NCBI GenBank assembly: GCA_000165345.1
Contig: CM000431.1
Coordinates: forward strand, 896,001-960,000
Direction of reading: 5' to 3'
Length of the DNA: 64,000 nt
Shown: positions 24,699 through 40,105 of the stretch, piece by piece
How positions within the stretch are numbered: the first letter of the stretch is position 1
How the letters are laid out: every line of letters starts with the position of its first letter
The notes under the pieces: model-generated
Database searches by the model: none
Told to the model about the DNA's origin: nothing
What the model saw: only the letters and a program-made list of their open reading frames with translations
Made by a program: the position numbers and the translations under genes

Positions 24699-26669
24699 AT
24701 GAATTCTTTTGGTGCAATAAATGGGCAAGGAGAAGATGATGATGACTTAGAACTTCAGCGTGCATTATCTGAATCCCTTCGCGAATTTAATAATACCAAT
24801 AATATATTAAAAAATAATGGCATTCAAACTCTGGATGAAAATAAAAAGCAGAGTAAGGATAACAACGATATTGAATTTATCAATAACTCTGTAACATTTG
24901 ATGATTTGATAAATTATTCAGAGTCTATGCAGAATGAATTGGTGAATATATTGAATCTTAATAATAATAATTGTAATAATTGTAAGAAAAAGAATGATAT
25001 TGATTCTTTAACTCAGATAATAACAGGAAAGAAAGTTATTATAGATAATAAATTACACGAACATTTTAATGAAACTTATGACCCCTATAAAGATAAAGAA
25101 TTAAAACCTTTACCCATTGACAATGTAAATGAAATTATTGAAATAATTTTTGGAATTAATGGAAATTTATTGGCTCAGGATGAAGACATTAAAAGATGGA
25201 TCTATCATTCAATTGAGTTTACATGTAATTCAATTCCAAAAATAGAAGATGATAATAAAACTGATTTTTTTAAGGAAAATCGATCAATTTTCACTTTTAA
25301 AGAAAACTTTAAAAGTATGAACTACTGTTTAATTCAACAAGGAGGTGGTCCTTGTGGAGTTTTAGCTTCCCTGAATGGATTTATTATAAGTCAATTAATA
25401 TTTAATCCTTTAAGGCTTAAAATGATTAAGGAAAAATATCAGGAAGATCTGGTTGAGTATTTGAATTCTATAAGTGAGGAGGATTGTTGGGAAGCTTTAA
25501 TTCAATCAATATGTATGATATTTTTCCAATCGTCTCCTGAAAGCAAGTATCGTGTTATTCAGTATAAACCATATGAAAAAATGGAAACACTTCAACAGAA
25601 TAGACATTTTGACTTGATAAGTAATTGTTTAATTGGAAATGGAAACAATTTGTATTATTATGTTGAATATGATGATATTATGGAAGTTTATAAATTCTAC
25701 TGGAGACGTTTAAAATCTGGAATCTTCTCTAATATTGGCTCATTATTTTCAATATTAGTTTCGATTGTTGGTTCAAGAACTCCAAATCAGATTCGCTTGG
25801 ATATGGATGACTTTACGAATCCTTTAGTAGGAATGTTTGGTCATTGTAGTCAAGAGCTTGTGAATCTATTTATCACAGGAAGTGCAGTATCTAATGTGTT
25901 TGATGGTGTAAAGATTTTGAACGATAATGGTGGAGGAACAGTAACAGGAGCAGGTGATACTAATGAATCGCTATCTTTAAAAGGTATTTATAAGAAGTCT
26001 ATACTAGGTTATTTAACAGAACATGAAGCATTACAGTATTGTAAAGTTGGATTAAATTATAAATATCCTCTTTATCCTATTTGGATTATTGTTAATAAAA
26101 ATCACTATAAATGCTCATTCAGTTTTAATTTCAATGAATGTATTCTAACCATTTCTCAAGAGTTTATTCAAGTTATGCAAAAAGCTTTTGAAAAGTTTGA
26201 TACTGAAAATTCTGGATTTATCTTTGATAATCAATTAGAAAAGTTTCTAAATGAAATTAATTTAAAAGACTGTATGTTTGAACTTAAAAAATTTAGTGAA
26301 AATGGAATAATTCTGTGGAATGATTTAAAGAAGTGTATATTAAATTTGGTGGGAATCGAAAATGAAGAAGATAATCAACTTAGAGGAAGTAGAACAGGAG
26401 ATAATTCTTTAATAAGCCAATATAAATTATGGACTTCTGTATATATTTTTGATGGTCAAAATCATATTGGAAAGAAATTAATCATTTCTACAATATTTCC
26501 ACTTGAAAACTATTCCAAAACTAAAAAACTTTACGATAAATTTTCTTCTAATCATAAACAAAATGACAATGATAAAAGAAAATCTATTGAAGAATTGGAT
26601 TTAATTTCAATTTTACAAACAAGATGGGGAGGAGAGACTGTAATTGAAACTAAAATCTTAAACCTATAA
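24699..26669 (+). CDS. MINDY-3 (FAM188/DUF4205) family deubiquitinase with an N-terminal UIM and a C-terminal EF-hand-like region
   Basis: UIM-like DDDDLELQRALSESLREF. The catalytic-Cys motif QQGGGPCGVLASLNGFIISQLIF aligns with human MINDY-3 EGGPCAVIAPVQAFLL. ITGSAVSNVFDG, LQYCKVG and YPIWII blocks are conserved. EF-hand-like FEKFDTENSGFIFDNQLEKFL. Confidence 0.75.
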   Translation: MNSFGAINGQGEDDDDLELQRALSESLREFNNTNNILKNNGIQTLDENKKQSKDNNDIEFINNSVTFDDLINYSESMQNELVNILNLNNNNCNNCKKKNDIDSLTQIITGKKVIIDNKLHEHFNETYDPYKDKELKPLPIDNVNEIIEIIFGINGNLLAQDEDIKRWIYHSIEFTCNSIPKIEDDNKTDFFKENRSIFTFKENFKSMNYCLIQQGGGPCGVLASLNGFIISQLIFNPLRLKMIKEKYQEDLVEYLNSISEEDCWEALIQSICMIFFQSSPESKYRVIQYKPYEKMETLQQNRHFDLISNCLIGNGNNLYYYVEYDDIMEVYKFYWRRLKSGIFSNIGSLFSILVSIVGSRTPNQIRLDMDDFTNPLVGMFGHCSQELVNLFITGSAVSNVFDGVKILNDNGGGTVTGAGDTNESLSLKGIYKKSILGYLTEHEALQYCKVGLNYKYPLYPIWIIVNKNHYKCSFSFNFNECILTISQEFIQVMQKAFEKFDTENSGFIFDNQLEKFLNEINLKDCMFELKKFSENGIILWNDLKKCILNLVGIENEEDNQLRGSRTGDNSLISQYKLWTSVYIFDGQNHIGKKLIISTIFPLENYSKTKKLYDKFSSNHKQNDNDKRKSIEELDLISILQTRWGGETVIETKILNL

Positions 26670-26670
26670 A

Positions 26671-28260
26671 TTAAAAATTTTTTAGTTCGTTTGGTATTGG
26701 ATTATTTGAAGTTAAAAGGATTTTTTTGAGCTCAGGAAATAATCCCGAATCTTCAGGTGTTATAAATGAAATAGCAATACCATTTTTCCCAGCTCTTCCT
26801 GTTCTTCCAATACGGTGAGTATAAGTATCAATCGATTTTGGGAAATCATAATTTATAACAAGGTTAATATTATTAATATCAATACCACGTCCAGCAACAT
26901 CGGTAGATACAAGAATGTCAAATACTCCGCTTTTAAACAAATTAAGACTATTTTCTCTAACTTCCTGCATTTTCCCACCATGTAGAGAAGTTGCTTTAAA
27001 ACCATGAGATACAATTTCTCTACATACAATATCTACCATCTTTTTTTGGTTAAGAAAAACAATAATTGGTGGTACTGCCAATTCTTTATTATTTAAAGTA
27101 TTAATTAACGTAGATTTCTTTTTATTTTCACTAATAAAATTGAGTATTTGTTGAATTGATTTTTTTCCTGCTCCAATATCTCCAATAGTAACATTAATTG
27201 GCGAATTAAGATACCTTTTCGCAATGTTTTCAAGCTCTTTCTGCATAGTAGCACTAAACATATGAGTAGTTCTTTGAATCTCTGGCGGTATCTGATCAAG
27301 AATAAAGTTGAGAGAGTCTTGAAATCCTAAATCAATCATTCTATCAGCTTCATCCAAAATAACATATGAACATTGTACTAATACTGTTAATGTTTTTTCA
27401 AGACAATCCTGCATTCTACCTGGAGTTGCAATAATAATCTCCACTCCTTTTCTAAGTGAAAATGCTTGTTGATCAATATTTCTTCCTCCAACAATAGATA
27501 AAGTACGTATTCTTTTTAATTCATGAGTTTTATTTAATAATTTTTGAGCTTCATCTTCAATTTGAAGTGCTAATTCTCTGGCTGGAGCAAGAATAAGTCC
27601 ATATGGTCCTTCTTGACTTGTTTTATAATCAAGTATTGGTTTATTCCCTACATAACTAATAAGTGGAATTAGAAAAGCTATAGTTTTACCACTACCAGTT
27701 TCTGCTATTCCTATCATATCCCTAAGTTTTAATCCAATAGGAATACATTGCATTTGAATTGGAGTTGGCTTTTCATAACCAATATTTCTAATTAACTCTG
27801 TTTGTATTTCTAAAACATGACAATCTTTCCAATTACGTATTGGATTTGGAACATCTTTGCCACGTACATTAATTGAGTAATCTTCTCTAAATATTTTCCA
27901 ATCTCTCTCAGTCATATCAAAATATCCCAAATCTGATTTCTCATCCAAAAATTCATCATTCTTTCCATTACTATCTTCTTTTCTTATTCCTTTCTTTTTC
28001 CTCTCGCTTAACATCTTTTCTATATTTAATCGATTCATATATAATTCATTTGACCCCAATGAAAAAGTATCCTCATTATTGCTCCATTCAAACTGTAGCA
28101 TGCCTCTATGTCTTTTTTTGCTCTTTCCATCTTCAACATTACTACTTATTAAGTCATAATTAACAACATTATCCTTCTCATCCGAATTAGCTTTATTAGC
28201 TAATATTGATTGATCGTTTTCATACCTATCTAACCTCTCTAGTCCCGGAATCTTCAACAT
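26671..28260 (-). CDS. DEAD-box RNA helicase of the PRP28/DDX23 (U5 snRNP 100K) type
   Basis: MTERDWKIFREDYSINVRGKDVPNPIRNWKD is the DDX23-specific N-terminal extension. AETGSGKT, DEAD (VILDEADRM), SAT, and HRIGRTGRAG are present. Confidence 0.9.
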   Translation of the reverse strand: MLKIPGLERLDRYENDQSILANKANSDEKDNVVNYDLISSNVEDGKSKKRHRGMLQFEWSNNEDTFSLGSNELYMNRLNIEKMLSERKKKGIRKEDSNGKNDEFLDEKSDLGYFDMTERDWKIFREDYSINVRGKDVPNPIRNWKDCHVLEIQTELIRNIGYEKPTPIQMQCIPIGLKLRDMIGIAETGSGKTIAFLIPLISYVGNKPILDYKTSQEGPYGLILAPARELALQIEDEAQKLLNKTHELKRIRTLSIVGGRNIDQQAFSLRKGVEIIIATPGRMQDCLEKTLTVLVQCSYVILDEADRMIDLGFQDSLNFILDQIPPEIQRTTHMFSATMQKELENIAKRYLNSPINVTIGDIGAGKKSIQQILNFISENKKKSTLINTLNNKELAVPPIIVFLNQKKMVDIVCREIVSHGFKATSLHGGKMQEVRENSLNLFKSGVFDILVSTDVAGRGIDINNINLVINYDFPKSIDTYTHRIGRTGRAGKNGIAISFITPEDSGLFPELKKILLTSNNPIPNELKNF

Positions 28261-28934
28261 TATATTTGCATTTCTACTAATTTCTCCCTACTTTTTAATA
28301 ATTAAACAACTCTTATAATTACTAATTATTATAATTCATGCCAAAATACCGCCAGCGCCAAAAACATGCACGACCATTATTGATAAATATTAAAAGGTTA
28401 CCAATTTAAAGTAAATATGTAATGAAAAAAAAAAATGTTTTTTTTTGGCGGGAGATTTTGTTAAATATAAAATGCATGGAATAATGCAATTAATGTTAGA
28501 GGTAGAAAATGTTAAAATATTTAAAGATTACGAGAAAGTGAGAGTATGTTGGAGAAAAAAAATAAGGAAAAAAAAATAAAGAAAAGAAGTATAGGAAGAA
28601 GCAAAAGAAAAGAATAATATTTATTTGAGCTTAAGAATGAATAGATCCCGAATATTATTAGGTTTTATTAATTGAAATATAAAAATACGTAGATTTAAAA
28701 CTTTAAAAAATAATTATTATTAGTTTTATTTTTGTAAGAACTATCTTAAGTTAATTACGTTAAATTCAAACAGATTTTCTATTATTCTAACGAGGGTGAA
28801 ATGAAAAATAAAAGTTTAAGTAATTTGCATTCCGCCAATCATTGCTGGATTAAATATTAATAGATTACACAAATTTTTTTTAATTAGTTATAAGTAAATA
28901 ATATTGCTGAATTAAAATTAGCAACAAAATTTTA

Positions 28935-29078
28935 ATGGGAATTTCCCATACATTTATAAACTATATAATCACTTTCTGTTTAATTATATTACTGGAGTTT
29001 ATTTTTTCTATTGATATTTTAGACAGAGAGGATACTTATTGTAATGAGAATAATATATCAGATTTAATTTGTGTACCA
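28935..29078 (+). CDS. exon 1 of a 3-exon gene for a roughly 1000-aa secreted Cys-rich, Asn-rich protein (signal peptide exon)
   Basis: ATG at 28935, then MGISHTFINYIITFCLIILLEFIFSIDIL (hydrophobic signal), then the GTAAGT donor at 29079. Confidence 0.55.
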
Positions 29079-29167
29079 GTAAGTATTATTGTTCATTTTT
29101 TTTTCTTTTCTTAAAAAAAAAACTTTATTCATACAAAATTATATACAAAATTCACTCATTATTTTAG

Positions 29168-29569
29168 AATGATAACATTATTGAACTTATTAATAAAATA
29201 ATTGAAGATTTATCACCAAAATTGCAATTAAAAGAAGAATACCAAGATATAAATACATATTTAGTTTTTAATGAGTTGGAATTTGTTAAAAGCCCATTAT
29301 ACTCTTGTGGTCATCCAAAATCAAAATTAATAGAACTGGATAACATTAAGAAAACATTCTTATGTATGGTAACAGAAGAATTACAAAAAGTTCTACAATG
29401 TAAAAGTGGATATGAATTAACTGAGGTATTAATAGAGAATCCTAGTAAAAAACTTGGATATGGTGAATCTGAAATTAGACCAAGAACTAATAGAGAGAAG
29501 AAATATGCAATAAAAAGTGATAAAATTTGTATTAAAACTGTAAAAGTTCCTGTTGAAATTATATGCAAA
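29168..29569 (+). CDS. exon 2 of the same secreted-protein gene
   Basis: ttattttAG acceptor at 29166-29167, in frame with the ORF-track ORF 29222..29590. Ends ..EIICK, followed by GTAAGT at 29570. Confidence 0.6.
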
Positions 29570-29637
29570 GTAAGTTTTCGCTATTTTTAAATGTTGAATT
29601 ATTAATATTTAAAAAAAAAAACAATTTTATATTTTAG

Positions 29638-32115
29638 GATGGCAAATTTAAAGATGGATTTTGTGTTAAGGAAGAAACAACAAATCCATTATATGAATGC
29701 CCTAAAGGATTACATGTGACTCCAAGAAGATGGTGTGGATATATTAAAAAAGAATTAAATGAAAGTTTAATGGAAAATGTAATTAAAAGAACAAATCCTG
29801 GATGTGTTATTAAAACAGTACATCCATGGTTTAAATCTACAGCTACTGTTGAATGTTATAATAGTAATAATGGTTATATTGTAGGTATTACAGAGGATGA
29901 TTGGGTTAATGTTATACCACCAACAATAAAATGTCCAAGAGATTTTGAAATAATATTCCCAACATATCCAACAGAAGATACAATTAAAGGTAATTTTACT
30001 TTTCCTCCGGTATGTCTTGCTAGAAGATATTTTCCAAGAAGTATAAGTTGTCCAGGAATATTATTAAGAAATGGACTTATAGTAACTGATAGATATATTG
30101 TTGATAACGAATTGAATCCAACTCCATTTAAGCAGAAAATAGATGTTTCACATTATTCTTGTCAGGTACAAAGTAGGGTGAAGCCAAATATAGTTTGTCC
30201 AATAATTAATATGGATTATTACTCAAGATTAAGATATGTTTTCCCAAATAATGAATATTATTTGAATTCACATTTCAATACTGAAGAAGTTATTAATTAT
30301 CAATCGGGACTTTTTGATTTTACAAGTTATTCAAATTTTTTAAATGAGAATCCAAATATTATTAATGAGTTAAAGGAAAATCAGTTAAGTCAATTGAGTA
30401 ATGTTTCTGATACTAATTCCACAATATCCAATAGTTCTATTTCCAATTCCAACTTAAATGACTCAATTGTATCAACATCCAATGATAATGATAATGATAA
30501 TGATAACTCAACTTTGAAATCTAGTCCATATTATAACTATAAGGCCTACAAAAATGAGTTTCATGAATATAAATACTATTATAATGATACTTTAAATAAA
30601 CACTTAAAGTCCATGAATGATTACAATAACCATGAATACTCATATTATCCATTCAGGTTGAATACTACTTTGGATAATCCTTGGAATACAAAAACTAGTA
30701 ATAATATTAGTAACAATTTGAGACGGGAGGATCATAGAAAAGTACATTCAATTCATTCAAAAGGTTCACAAATAGAAAAAGTGGTTGGAGCAAAACAATT
30801 CGATAAAGAATATGATAACTTTCTACAAGGATTAAAAATAGATTTATCAAAACAAAGTGAGTACTTTAATGATTATCAATGGGATTTCTTAAGCAAATTC
30901 TATAGAGTTTATATATCAGATCAATATAAATTTGTATCAAATATTCCAGTTTCTTCTATTTCACATAAAGCATTGACAATAGATGGAGGTTATCAACTGA
31001 ATATTAATTTAGATCCAACTTATCAAAGCTTTGTCAATTATACATTGGAAAATATGAAAATGATGGATTCTGAATTGAAAATTAACAATTTAATGGATAA
31101 TCTGAACGATACAATGATTAATAATAATGATAATGTTACTGATAGTAATAGTAGTAATGATAATAATACCGATAGTAATAATAATAACATTACTGAGATT
31201 AATATGAATATTAATAATCCTCAATTAATAGAAAAGTTATTAATTTTAAATGATACTAATACAACCAATAATCTTAATTTTACAAGAGATCATGAATATA
31301 ATGCTTGGGAAAAATCTGCAAGAATATATTTTATGGATTTAGATTTGATGAAAAAGAATCAAATAATTTATTCGAGTATTAGTAACTATAAACATAAGAG
31401 AAAGTTTCCATTTCTATATTATTATGGAAGACAACCAAGTATTAATAATGATTATGGACATATTAGAAGACCAGCAATTTCTGACCACAAATATAGATAT
31501 GGAAGTCCTGCAGAAGATTATCACAAATACAGTGGAAGACATGAAAATAGCGATTTACTTTATTATATTAACAAACATTTAAATCAGACAAAACCTTATA
31601 GACATTCTCCAGGGCCACAAACTTATCATAATTGTATATCTATAAATGAGACAACTCCAATAATAGAGTGTCCAAATTCAAATATTATTATTCCAAAATG
31701 TTTTATACTTGATATAATATATGGAATTTTTACAGCAAATAGTCAAAAGAATATTAATGATACATTGATTAAAGATATTGACGAAATGAATTTGAATAAT
31801 TCAATTTCTGAAACAAATGGCAATATTCAAGAAGAAGAAAAGAAAAAAAGGGAAGAGAAGAAAAAGAGAGAAGAAGAAGAGAAGATTAAGAAAGAAAAAG
31901 AAGAGGAAGAAAAAGCTTTTATGGATAATTATATTAATAGTAGACCAATTTCAATTCAAGAAGGATTGAATGATTTGGGAGATTTAGAAGCTATTGAAAG
32001 CATGGAGGATTATGGAAATATTTTGAATGAATTAGGTTATTTTGGAAATATAGGAGAACTTCAAAATTTGGAGATGTTGGAAAATCTCCAAGGACTTGGC
32101 CAAATAGCAGTTTAG
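29638..32115 (+). CDS. exon 3 of the same gene: Cys-rich N-terminal half, (DN)n and N/S-rich low complexity, K/E-rich C-terminal block
   Basis: attttAG acceptor at 29636-29637, in frame with the long ORF 29716..32115. The ORF-track M at 29716 is a GTG codon, not a real start. Confidence 0.75.
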   Translation, partial: DGKFKDGFCVKEETTNPLYECPKGLHVTPRRWCGYIKKELNESLMENVIKRTNPGCVIKTVHPWFKSTATVECYNSNNGYIVGITEDDWVNVIPPTIKCPRDFEIIFPTYPTEDTIKGNFTFPPVCLARRYFPRSISCPGILLRNGLIVTDRYIVDNELNPTPFKQKIDVSHYSCQVQSRVKPNIVCPIINMDYYSRLRYVFPNNEYYLNSHFNTEEVINYQSGLFDFTSYSNFLNENPNIINELKENQLSQLSNVSDTNSTISNSSISNSNLNDSIVSTSNDNDNDNDNSTLKSSPYYNYKAYKNEFHEYKYYYNDTLNKHLKSMNDYNNHEYSYYPFRLNTTLDNPWNTKTSNNISNNLRREDHRKVHSIHSKGSQIEKVVGAKQFDKEYDNFLQGLKIDLSKQSEYFNDYQWDFLSKFYRVYISDQYKFVSNIPVSSISHKALTIDGGYQLNINLDPTYQSFVNYTLENMKMMDSELKINNLMDNLNDTMINNNDNVTDSNSSNDNNTDSNNNNITEINMNINNPQLIEKLLILNDTNTTNNLNFTRDHEYNAWEKSARIYFMDLDLMKKNQIIYSSISNYKHKRKFPFLYYYGRQPSINNDYGHIRRPAISDHKYRYGSPAEDYHKYSGRHENSDLLYYINKHLNQTKPYRHSPGPQTYHNCISINETTPIIECPNSNIIIPKCFILDIIYGIFTANSQKNINDTLIKDIDEMNLNNSISETNGNIQEEEKKKREEKKKREEEEKIKKEKEEEEKAFMDNYINSRPISIQEGLNDLGDLEAIESMEDYGNILNELGYFGNIGELQNLEMLENLQGLGQIAV

Positions 32116-36644: not shown

Positions 36645-39600
36645 TTGGGAATATTTAAGCTGGAAATTAACTTTTTAATAACATTTAATAAAATGAATTC
36701 TCTTGATTTACAAGTTAATGGAATGACATGTACGTCATGTGCTACTACAATAAAAAACTTATTATTACATTACAAATTTGTAAAAGATGTTGAAATAAAT
36801 ATCATTTTAAATAGTGTACGTGTAATATTGAATAAGAAAATCACACTTGATGAAAGAAAAAAGATTTGTGACACAATTAACAATGCAGGATTTATTTGTT
36901 TATTAAAGTCAAGTACAATAATGAATGACATGTTAACTTTAAGTATTGATGACCTTAAGTTAGAAGAAAGAAGTTTAGAAAGTGAAATAATTTATGGAAG
37001 TTCAAAAGATATAGCTGAACAAATTTTGAACAGTAAAGGAATAAAGTTTTTAAAATTACATCAAATACCAACAGAAGAGATGAAATTAATAGTAAAAGCA
37101 TTAGAAAATAAAGCTGGAATTATTACTATAATAAGTTATTTGAAGTGGGGACAATTATGCATTTTATTTGATGAAAATCAGATTACTATAACGCAGATAC
37201 AAGAAATTCTAGAGAAATCTGATATTTGGATGCTAAGTTATATGAAATTCTATTGTTTATTTGGTAAGGAAAAGCTTTCATGTGTAAACAATCTTAAAAT
37301 TAAATGTATTTTCCGTTTAAATTCTGATAGAGAAGGTATTAGCATAATACAAAAGATATATAATTGTTTAAGACGAAGAAATGCAAATATTGAGTTCAAT
37401 AAAGATTTTACAGCAAGTATTGGTTGTATTGTAAGTGGAATCTTTGGGATTTACAATGTATCCGTTGAAAGAATGAATGAAAATAATTTGGAGAGAAATC
37501 TTGTTCTAATGATTTGCATTGATTATAATCCTTACTTTATTTCTGGGAGGAATCTATTAAAATATATGAATGATGAAGTTTTAAAAAACTACGTTAATGA
37601 ACCAATTCTAGATGAACAAATTAATGAAAATAAATTGAGAAAGCAATACTCACATAGGTTAGTGAATTCAATGCAAATTATTACAAAGTGTAATTTGGAT
37701 GAAAGTGTTAATTACTCAAGCCTGCAAAAAATTAAAGATAAGGAGTCTCGATATTATGTTATTTGTTTTACAATTTCTTTAATTTTAACTATTATGGTAC
37801 TATTATATAATTTCTTGGGTGATAAACCCTTTATGTCCAAGTTTACAAGAATTATCTCTTTTAATACAATCAAATCTTTGCAAGATCAAACAGGATTATC
37901 TGGTATTAGTTGGAAATATTTGATAAATTTAATATTAGTCACAGTAGTGGTATATTTATGTGGATATACATTTCATAAGAAAGGAATCAAAAGTATGCTA
38001 TATTTGAATCCAAATATGTATAGCTTAATTTCACTTGGAACAAATACATGCTATTTGTATTCACTTTATATGATGATTTATATAGCAATAATATCTTCAA
38101 AAGGTCCTGAAAATACAAAAATATATTCAGATAAGTTACCCAATTTTTTTGATATTGCTTGTATGCTTATCACAATAAGCTTATTTGGAAGAATTTTGGA
38201 TGTACATTCAAATCTACTGATATTAAGAATTATTAATAATAATAGTAATAAAAATGAAGTTGGTGAAAATGGAGATTCCATGAGGTATAATATAAAAGAT
38301 AATTTTCAATTACTTGGTGAAACTAAATTTGAATCACTTGAAAAAGTTTATTATCATTTTTCAAACTCTGAGAATTGTCAGGTATTACCTTTAGCATCTC
38401 CAAAAGATTTAAAGAAAAATAAGGAATTCCGATCAAAATATAAAAATACAGAAATTGGACAAAAAATGAATACTATGAGCATAGACTCAATTTGTTTGGA
38501 TGATATTTCACCTCAATCTATGGAAATGAAGGAACAGAGCTCAATTATTAATAATATAGTAAATGTTGATTTAATAGATTTGGGGGATGTTATTATTTTA
38601 AAAAAGGATGAAATTGTACCATATGATGGAATTGTTATTTCTAATGATATCGCAGTTTTGGATGAATCAATGATTACTGGTGAAAGCAGAATCATTGAAA
38701 AATTATATGGAAATTTTATATCCAGTGGAAGTAGAGTATTATCTGATAATGTATTCATATTTGTTACTGAAGTAGGAACTGAAAGTACTCTTGGAAAGAT
38801 TCAAAAGTTAAAAATAAAAGCAAGAGAGAGTCAAATAGAGTTACCTGGAATTATTGATATATTTTCCAGATATTTTGTACCTTCAATCATATTATTATCT
38901 TTATTGGCTTTTGTTGTTTGGTTCTTATTAGCTTATTATGACAAAGTGGATCCAGCTAGAATGTTTAATATTGACAGAATAAACTTTAATACAGAATTTG
39001 ATAATATATTTAAAGAATTTCCAATTTCATCCAGAGTTATGTTTGCACTGCATTTCTCACTTTCAATATTGGCAATATCTTGCCCATGTGTTATTGGTAT
39101 TACAGTTCCTATTGCTGTACTTATTTCAACTTCTTTAACTTCAAAAAAGAATATATTGGTACAAAACACAAATATTTTCAATAATATAGGATTTATTGAT
39201 AATATAGTTTTTGATAAAACTGGTACTTTGACAAATGGAAGACCAACTGTCAAATCTATTATTATTGATCATGAACATATTCAAGAAATAATAAGTACTA
39301 CATTTAATAATGGTTACAGTTCAAAATGGGAAAAGTCGACTGATATAGATTTTTCTAATTCTTCTATTGAAACATTTTATATTAATAAGAATTCTAATAT
39401 TCAAGAAAAAAATATTGTTTTTGAAGAATTATTCGAATCTTATTTAAAGTTTTGGTGGATTATTGGATCTTGTGAATATTATAATAATCATCCAGCTGGA
39501 AATGTATTAAGATCTTTCTCAATTCGTCTATTTAATAATAAAGAACAATATAAGTTTACTCAACCTATTGATTGTAAATATATTCCAGGAGTAGGAATGA

Positions 39601-40043
39601 CTTGTATTATTAATAGCATGAAAGTTTTAATTACAAATCAATATAAGCATCTTGATCAAGATTTCAGTTTAGTTTCAGTCAATTCTAAAGATTATAATCA
39701 TTATCTAAAGAGTCCATCTAATACTTTAGAAATTTCTTTAGATAGTCCTGAAAATAAGAGTACAGAATATTCATCATTATATTTGCAGAATTGGCTTAAA
39801 TATTGGTCTAAAAAAGGATCAATGATTATTTACATTTTTATTGGTGATATAAATAACTTCAGTGATAATGAACATGGATTAATTAATGCCAAAAATATGA
39901 AATTAGTTGGTGCAGTTTCTATGATTGATGAACCAATGTTTGGAGTAGAGTCTACAATTAATTATATGAAAAAATATGTAACAGATCAAATATGGTTGTG
40001 CTCTGGTGATTCTTTTTATACATCAAATTCAATTGCGTCAATG
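36645..40043 (+). CDS. Cu(+)-transporting P1B-type ATPase, exon 1. The start is probably the ATG at 36693 (MNSLDLQVNG..).
   Basis: HMA motif GMTCTSCA. TGES (MITGESR). CPC (SCPCVIGITVP). DKTGTLT. Exon ends ..SIASM|, followed by GTAAGT at 40044. Confidence 0.9.
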
Positions 40044-40105
40044 GTAAGTTTATTAAAAGAAAAATTCAATAATTTTTGAATAACTTAATATATTTTTAAT
40101 TAAAG

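Follow-up and report, generated by a model that had tools for sequence, protein, structure and literature searches.

The window analysed here is a 64,000-nucleotide stretch of Cryptosporidium parvum chromosome 3 (GenBank assembly GCA_000165345.1, contig CM000431.1, positions 896,001 to 960,000 of the forward strand), and it contains the gene cgd3_3700, which is catalogued as "Uncharacterized protein". The product of this gene is explained, with moderate confidence, as a divergent and non-canonical structural glycoprotein of the oocyst-wall type, which might have a disulfide-cross-linked extracellular role in or under the oocyst wall. The evidence consists of a conserved three-exon gene model, an invariant cysteine pattern, the similarity to the type I repeats of the oocyst wall proteins (OWP in coccidia, COWP in Cryptosporidium), late transcription, and the presence of the protein in oocyst lysate. 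The coordinates of all features are collected in Table 1.

The open reading frame (ORF) list of the region contains three pieces, 28935..29114 with an ATG start, 29222..29590 with a TTG start and 29716..32115 with a GTG start. The earlier note had joined them into one gene for a protein of about 1000 residues, in which ATG 28935 opens a 48-codon exon closed by a GTAAGT donor and two introns with T-rich AG acceptors are removed with the frame kept. This structure was borne out throughout; both introns have GTAAGT donors and TTTTAG acceptors, and the spliced exons amount to 3024 nt, that is, 1007 codons plus the stop. For comparison of the introns, proteins were threaded onto the DNA of five orthologous loci from other Cryptosporidium species, including C. 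muris. Each locus has two phase-0 GT-AG introns after the same two residues, which end the motifs LICVP and IICK (the latter followed by DGK in C. parvum). The orthologue introns range from 50 to 159 nt; each of them shifts the frame and/or contains stops, and their AT content is above that of the exons. In C. parvum the GC content is 26% in the exons versus 16% in intron 1 and 13% in intron 2. The exons of C. parvum and C. ubiquitum share 78-83% nucleotide identity almost without gaps, whereas the introns share 50% with indels; exon 2 aligned without gaps to C. ubiquitum (83% identity) and to C. canis. The annotated orthologues also continue across both junctions, including those of C. ubiquitum (1020 aa), C. 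canis (940 aa), C. felis (1100 aa), C. bovis (899 aa), C. meleagridis (988 aa) and C. muris (951 aa). Synteny of the MINDY, DDX23, target and cgd3_3710 homologues is kept in the five loci, and Ctf8 is found in four of them. The three-exon model is thus as secure as comparative data allow, and the join is far beyond chance.

It is extremely improbable that the three ORFs represent separate genes or pieces of a pseudogene and are not spliced together. Some gene calls do split the locus, including P0028 and the C. hominis TU502 and chipmunk genotype I models, which begin at MENVIK; however, the same intron positions and phase occur in five other species, and the introns are frame-breaking or contain stops. 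Moreover, conservation ends at the exon edges, and both the cysteine pattern and the OWP-like alignment span the junctions. The broken calls can be described as follows: P0028 is a 78-aa product in which exon 1 is read into intron 1 (28935..29167), whereas the models of C. hominis TU502 (645 aa) and chipmunk genotype I (747 aa) start at the internal M227, so that the signal peptide and some 226 residues are missing. The gene model is an ordinary one, correctly inferred in the earlier note, for an already catalogued gene.

None of the 20 cysteines of the mature protein varies between the species compared, C. parvum to C. muris; 17 lie in residues 36-369 and are followed by C848, C860 and C870. 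The N-terminal half was therefore rightly called Cys-rich, since 17 of the 20 lie within residues 26-375. Gaps of 10-12 residues make up 10 of the 19 overall. In the N-terminal domain, 8 of 16 gaps have this length versus 1.46 expected, and none of 20000 shuffles reached 8 (p<5e-5). The COWPs were reported to have a cysteine at every 10th-12th residue (PMC12548878). Both groups of invariant cysteines are odd in number (17 in 29040..30198 and 3 in 31633..31701), which suggests either a disulfide between the N-terminal and C-terminal domains or free cysteines for intermolecular links.

The homology search of the Cys-rich half, which the earlier note had recommended, gave a profile-profile match to the OWP type I repeats. 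The OWP sequences were taken from the supplement of PMC4514997, and a search with a TgOWP6 fragment added the OWP6-like protein P0031; the comparison was made with these coccidian OWP6-type sequences, not with COWP1-9. A synthetic COWP1-like query, made of translated published primers, gave no match. Using hhalign, the cgd3_3700 family matched the OWP6 alignment with a probability of 90.9% (E 1.2e-6, 138 columns), and TgOWP6 plus EnOWP6 only with a probability of 90.5% (E 1.4e-6). The real comparison scored 60.3, whereas reversed profiles scored 20-22 and 30 shuffles that preserved the Cys columns scored at most 28.2. These controls are far below the real score, which indicates that the signal exceeds cysteine spacing or composition and that non-cysteine residues contribute. 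Alternative registers scored 40.5 and 39.2, as is expected for repeats. BLASTP against P0031 gave an E value of 3e-4. For the C-terminal half, the comparison with the OWP repeats was not significant (E 0.055). The UniRef name of the C. muris orthologue is also "Oocyst wall protein".

The earlier note had stated that the protein is not of the COWP type. This is true of its overall build, because there is no long tandem array and cysteine makes up 2.1% of the residues; however, the cysteine spacing of 10-12 residues and the profile match to OWP type I repeats speak against the statement as a whole. When judged by the tandem cysteine array and the cysteine density of the COWP/OWP family, the protein falls outside it, with 20 cysteines in 982 mature residues and none in residues 376-847, and the spacing of 10-12 residues is continuous for C169-C215 only. 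As judged from these alignments, the N-terminal half carries degenerate repeats resembling OWP type I, and the protein is not a canonical COWP. The link to the COWPs is modestly new.

Another explanation is that the OWP resemblance is a convergence of small disulfide hairpins, and that cgd3_3700 is a genus-specific orphan whose role could not be inferred from the COWPs. This would be consistent with the weak match to the degenerate Eimeria OWP2 (E 0.006, 40 columns, hhalign) and with the results of the database searches. For example, the HMMER profile search over 1.84 billion representatives found only Cryptosporidium orthologues and the 78-aa mis-call; Pfam at E<=10 gave nothing meaningful, either for the complete protein or for four of its sub-regions and four orthologues, and the PDB profile search gave no match. 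However, the shuffles that preserve the Cys columns and the reversed profiles abolish the signal, and the negative searches are weak. Pfam fails on the genuine TgOWP6 too, and the absence of a Pfam match therefore carries no weight against COWP-type repeats. The TgOWP6 fragment failed to retrieve TgOWP6 itself from the sister collection, which suggests that the collection is thin for other Apicomplexa and that the term "genus-restricted" is only provisional. Convergence is thus considered rather improbable.

The features of the whole protein also fit a secretory route. As proposed before, the N-terminus is a hydrophobic leader, and hydropathy analysis of seven orthologues suggests no other membrane-like segment. 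The Kyte-Doolittle 19-mer maximum is 2.58 in the leader, and strong hydrophobicity is confined to residues 1-30. In all seven orthologues the hydrophobic core lies within the first 35 residues and is divergent in sequence, with conservation starting at SIDIL; no 19-mer above 1.6 was found past residue 60 in any of them. The C-terminus is not hydrophobic and has no end resembling a glycosylphosphatidylinositol signal. Of the proposed secreted or surface glycoprotein, the secreted part is thus compatible with the composition and the leader, whereas the surface part is not supported, because the protein has neither a transmembrane segment nor a hydrophobic C-terminus. The product is predicted to be a soluble secretory protein that is not obviously surface-anchored, because of the lone N-terminal hydrophobic core and the non-hydrophobic C-terminus.

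The (DN)n run, the Asn/Ser-rich stretches with sequons (24 NxS/T) and the K/E tail were all confirmed; of the Cys contexts mentioned with them, five CP are present (residues 203, 281, 320, 369 and 860), whereas CxxC does not occur. Most of the 24 sequons are in the variable Asn/Ser-rich linkers, and N524, N831 and N852 are conserved. C. parvum was reported to N-glycosylate oocyst proteins (PMC9713705). Residues 476-660 and 736-880 contain about 11% tyrosine and are conserved. The acidic C-terminal tail is kept in C. parvum, C. meleagridis, C. ubiquitum, the chipmunk genotype I, C. canis, C. felis and P0005, but C. bovis, C. ryanae and C. muris lack it. The (DN)n run is encoded by a perfect (AATGAT)4.3 microsatellite, equal to (GATAAT)4, at 30481..30506. 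It has two DN units fewer in the C. hominis TU502 fragment and another length in C. meleagridis, and could be used as a length-polymorphic typing marker.

The timing of expression is also compatible with a wall protein. In a published reverse transcription PCR (RT-PCR) series over 72 h, cgd3_3700 gave almost no signal at 2-24 h, with an onset at 36 h and the highest level at 48-72 h (PMC3305300 supplement); the genes of the COWPs and POWPs peak at 48 or 72 h (PMC3734150). Bulk RNA sequencing gave log2 counts per million of about 4.6 for sporozoites, and of about 2.4 and 5.1 for 24 h and 48 h, respectively (PMC6877471). At the protein level, cgd3_3700 was quantified, with low intensity, in the tandem mass tag proteome of excysted-oocyst lysate (PMC12548878).

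Some of these data might instead indicate a sporozoite-specific cargo of the secretory organelles, such as an adhesin or effector of the micronemes, dense granules or small granules, which is made at sporulation and released at invasion, with adhesive Cys modules. The sporozoite transcript level is close to that at 48 h, and cgd3_3700 is listed among the sporozoite genes not common to in vivo females (PMC6877471). The presence of the protein in the lysate of excysted oocysts and sporozoites, and the signal peptide seen by hydropathy together with no transmembrane segment, would suit such a cargo. COWP6 itself was also reported in sporozoites and as secreted (bioRxiv 10.64898/2026.05.05.722909). 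However, transcription is almost off at 2-24 h, when the invasion organelles of merozoites form, which argues against a part of the general invasion machinery. Moreover, cgd3_3700 is expressed at 48-72 h in HCT-8 cultures, which reportedly (Tandel et al. 2019) yield no sporulated oocysts. A sporozoite cargo is thus regarded as unlikely, though it deserves more weight than convergence.

The onset at 36 h and the peak at 48-72 h also coincide with the development of gamonts, and the gene could encode a secreted protein of the gamete or fertilisation stage, for example a male-gamont-specific one, which has nothing to do with the building of the wall. The full sheet of genes that distinguish sorted females from asexual stages does not contain cgd3_3700 (PMC6877471), as expected if it is expressed in neither; the COWPs are female-specific, and low-count filtering is possible. 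However, the protein and the transcript persist in oocysts and sporozoites, and a gamete role leaves the wall-repeat similarity and the conserved Tyr-rich blocks unexplained. This explanation is the least probable of the three functional alternatives, with only a slight chance of being correct.

The same absence from the female versus asexual list sets cgd3_3700 apart from the COWPs, and it is one of several points that weigh against the oocyst-wall explanation. Expression is low, and the gene was not found in the supplements of the oocyst-wall proteome, from which its two neighbours are likewise missing, and whose tables may use other identifiers. The HMMER search returned no COWP at E<=0.001. 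Only about 180 of the 1007 residues match the OWP repeats, and the cysteine density is 2.1% overall and about one in 21 residues in the N-terminal half, versus about one in 11 in the COWPs. The OWP profiles are shallow (Neff ~2), which would also favour convergence. His-rich type II repeats were found neither in the sequence nor in the alignment; they are not obligatory, as the TgOWPs have none (PMC4514997). AlphaFold2 gave no confident fold, with a predicted local distance difference test score of 33.7 for the full-length C. meleagridis orthologue and 40.0 for the N-terminal 382 residues.

Comparison of cgd3_3700 with known wall proteins showed both similarities and differences. Like COWP1-9 and the coccidian OWPs (TgOWP1-7, EnOWP2/6), it has a signal peptide, no transmembrane segment and cysteines 10-12 residues apart. 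The motifs CxxG[YF]xL...C and ...P..YECPxG of the COWP/OWP type I repeats are found in cgd3_3700, the profile similarity to the TgOWP6/EnOWP6 repeats extends over about 140 columns, and the late transcription (36-72 h) is similar to that of COWP class I/II. In contrast to the COWPs and OWPs, the number of repeat units in cgd3_3700 is only about one and a half to three; these are degenerate, with several cysteine pairs lost, and are followed by about 630 residues of unrelated sequence that is Tyr-rich or of low complexity. The nine named COWPs do not include cgd3_3700 (PMC12548878). TgOWP2 and EnOWP2 were described as having "degenerated type I repeats" (PMC4514997), and cgd3_3700 resembles them in the irregular cysteine distances inside recognisable type I units and in the two short introns; whereas these proteins have about 460 aa and are Cys-rich throughout, and the direct profile match is weak. 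The POWP1-5 proteins, identified by mass spectrometry of the C. parvum wall, are also non-COWP secreted proteins of the same late expression classes (PMC3734150); in a comparison made without POWP gene identifiers, no evidence was found that cgd3_3700 is one of them. The CPW-WPC proteins of Plasmodium and Cryptosporidium (Pfam PF09717) are likewise Cys-rich secreted apicomplexan proteins with CP motifs. Membership in this family was rejected, as PF09717 gave no match at E<=10 and the protein contains no WPC motif and no PC dipeptide.

Tyrosine-rich proteins also occur in the walls of Eimeria, where GAM56 and GAM82 are tyrosine-rich proteins of the wall-forming bodies. Dityrosine cross-links are reported to be absent from the walls of Cryptosporidium. 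A Tyr-rich sporocyst wall protein is mentioned for E. tenella in PMC4776368. The conserved blocks of cgd3_3700 with about 11% tyrosine resemble these Eimeria proteins in a comparison by composition only.

If cgd3_3700 is indeed an oocyst-wall-type protein, the following route could be proposed. The N-terminal signal peptide, which is probably cleaved, would take the product into the endoplasmic reticulum, where the 20 invariant cysteines might form disulfides and the conserved sequons would receive the simple N-glycans of the parasite. The N-terminal half contains a degenerate array of C-x(9-11)-C modules, as in the type I repeats of COWP/TgOWP/EnOWP, joined to Tyr-rich domains specific to Cryptosporidium and to variable Asn/Ser-rich linkers. 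During early asexual growth the gene is off; its transcription begins at 36-72 h, as the sexual stages and wall proteins are made, and the protein is carried in the oocyst. There it would most probably act as a disulfide-cross-linked extracellular structural or matrix component of the wall or of the material inside the wall. A more specific and clearly more tentative version is that cgd3_3700 represents a tenth member of the COWP lineage, highly divergent and not recognised before, present genus-wide, in which a degenerate type I array is fused to a Cryptosporidium-specific Tyr-rich domain. The odd cysteines, if free, could form intermolecular disulfides, and the protein might cross-link or anchor the COWP layers to each other, or the wall to the glycoprotein matrix that tethers the sporozoites.

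The identity of the gene was established from the exact matches of the flanking genes, the published gene order and the primer positions. A published proteomics table (PMC12548878) lists cgd3_3680 (EF-hand), cgd3_3690 (U5 snRNP), cgd3_3700 and cgd3_3710 in this order, and the published RT-PCR primers of cgd3_3700 map within exon 3 (29888..29911 and 30002..30022). The name "cgd3_3700" was found in no main text of the literature searched, and the long non-coding RNA supplements do not list the gene. Exact look-up in the protein collection gave no match for the spliced protein or for any of five other translations, namely exon 3 from 29638, the ORF that starts at GTG 29716, the truncated form from M227, the ORF that reads through from exon 1, and the exon-2 ORF from M115. 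Further downstream, the 1144-aa ORF at 36645..40079 (+) encodes a P-type ATPase with an HMA domain, which is probably cgd3_3740; its listed start is TTG, and the true start may be an internal ATG or lie in an upstream exon.

The upstream region had been described as a divergent promoter shared with the DDX23 helicase and carrying a site at 28447. The site GGCGGGAG is present at this position; however, it is far nearer to DDX23, and the sharing is not supported. C. ubiquitum and C. canis share the conserved core GGCGGGA, which in them lies 135-139 bp away from the DDX23 ATG, whereas the distance to the ATG of the target gene is about 480-500 bp. Judging from this position, GGCGGGAG more probably belongs to DDX23 (cgd3_3690) than to cgd3_3700. 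E2F-like motifs were also reported to be enriched upstream of gene clusters that comprise 2,379 C. parvum genes, without any particular pattern of expression (PMC3734150); a motif class that is near-ubiquitous says little about cgd3_3700. The gene has blocks of its own, TTCCGCC(A)AT and ATTAATAGAT, at 60-105 bp before the ATG; they are conserved among C. parvum, C. ubiquitum and C. canis and could be stage-specific promoter elements. A promoter common to both genes is thus not shown, and none is required, because the site is nearer to DDX23, the motif class is widespread and cgd3_3700 has its own proximal blocks. The TTCCGCC block overlaps a CCAAT box in C. parvum only. Another block, CCGCCAGCGCCAAAAACATGCA (28340..28370), is identical in C. 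parvum and C. ubiquitum; it lies 68-95 bp upstream of the DDX23 start, adjoins GGCGGGA and contains the E2F-like GCGCCAAA core, and it probably belongs to the DDX23 promoter. The spacer between DDX23 and the target gene is 125 bp in C. muris (locus L005, 2876..3000) versus 674 bp in C. parvum, and a scan of the C. muris spacer for the GGCGGG/GCGC motifs gave none.

Table 1. Features of cgd3_3700 and its surroundings (positions are those of the window).
Feature	Position	Strand	Remarks
Exon 1 (aa 1-48)	28935..29078	+	start codon, hydrophobic leader, conserved C36 and C46; orthologue models share the Met and end ...LICVP
Intron 1	29079..29167	+	89 nt, GTAAGT...TTTTAG, phase 0, 3n+2, in-frame stop, GC 16%
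Exon 2 (aa 49-182)	29168..29569	+	402 nt; 381-402 nt in orthologues
Intron 2	29570..29637	+	68 nt, GTAAGT...TTTTAG, phase 0, 3n+2, two in-frame stops, GC 13%
Exon 3 (aa 183-1007 and stop codon)	29638..32115	+	from ORF list and join; contains published primers
Putative cleaved signal peptide (aa 1-25)	28935..29009	+	sole strongly hydrophobic segment; predicted cleavage site
Conserved Cys-rich region (aa 26-375)	29010..30216	+	17 cysteines invariant in 7 species; block identity 0.6-0.8; interrupted by both introns
Degenerate OWP type-I-like repeat region (aa ~112-289)	29357..29958	+	spans intron 2; run C169-C181-C191-C203-C215; hhalign
Variable Ser/Asn-rich linker 1 (aa 426-475)	30367..30516	+	five sequons, (DN)n microsatellite; identity 0.23-0.30
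Conserved Tyr-rich middle blocks (aa 476-525, 576-650)	30517..31041	+	invariant YYPFRLNTT sequon, NLDPTY; 20 Tyr in aa 481-660
Variable Asn-rich linker 2 (aa 651-725)	31042..31266	+	eight sequons; identity 0.21-0.34
Conserved C-terminal domain (aa 726-875), Tyr/His/Arg-rich	31267..31716	+	invariant C848, C860, C870 (spacing 12, 10); conserved sequons N831, N852
K/E-rich low-complexity run (aa ~914-941)	31829..31915	+	poorly conserved
Acidic Gly/Leu-rich C-terminal tail (aa 950-1007; ...ELGYFGNIGELQNLEMLENLQGLGQIAV)	31939..32112	+	GDLE, GNIL, GNIGEL, GLGQ motifs; ends in V
Candidate proximal promoter blocks of cgd3_3700	TTCCGCCAAT 28830..28839; ATTAATAGAT 28856..28865	+	C. parvum, C. ubiquitum, C. 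canis; putative function
GGCGGGAG E2F-like site	28447..28454	.	187 bp from DDX23 ATG, 488 bp from cgd3_3700 ATG
U5 snRNP 100 kD/DDX23 helicase (cgd3_3690, CPATCC_001393)	26671..28260	-	exact match, C. parvum protein
MINDY/EF-hand protein	24699..26669	+	exact match, C. parvum protein
cgd3_3710/CPATCC_001395	32941..34581	+	exact match, C. parvum protein

For annotation in this genus, two practical lessons may be drawn. Truncated or fragmented models of cgd3_3700 persist in some annotations; and the lack of a Pfam hit is uninformative on COWP-type repeats, as no Pfam model detects even genuine OWPs. The oocyst wall makes Cryptosporidium chlorine-resistant and waterborne, and the inventory of wall proteins past COWP1-9 is incomplete. 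A genus-wide, single-copy late protein with wall-type repeats would therefore be a reasonable candidate for studies of the wall or of excystation.

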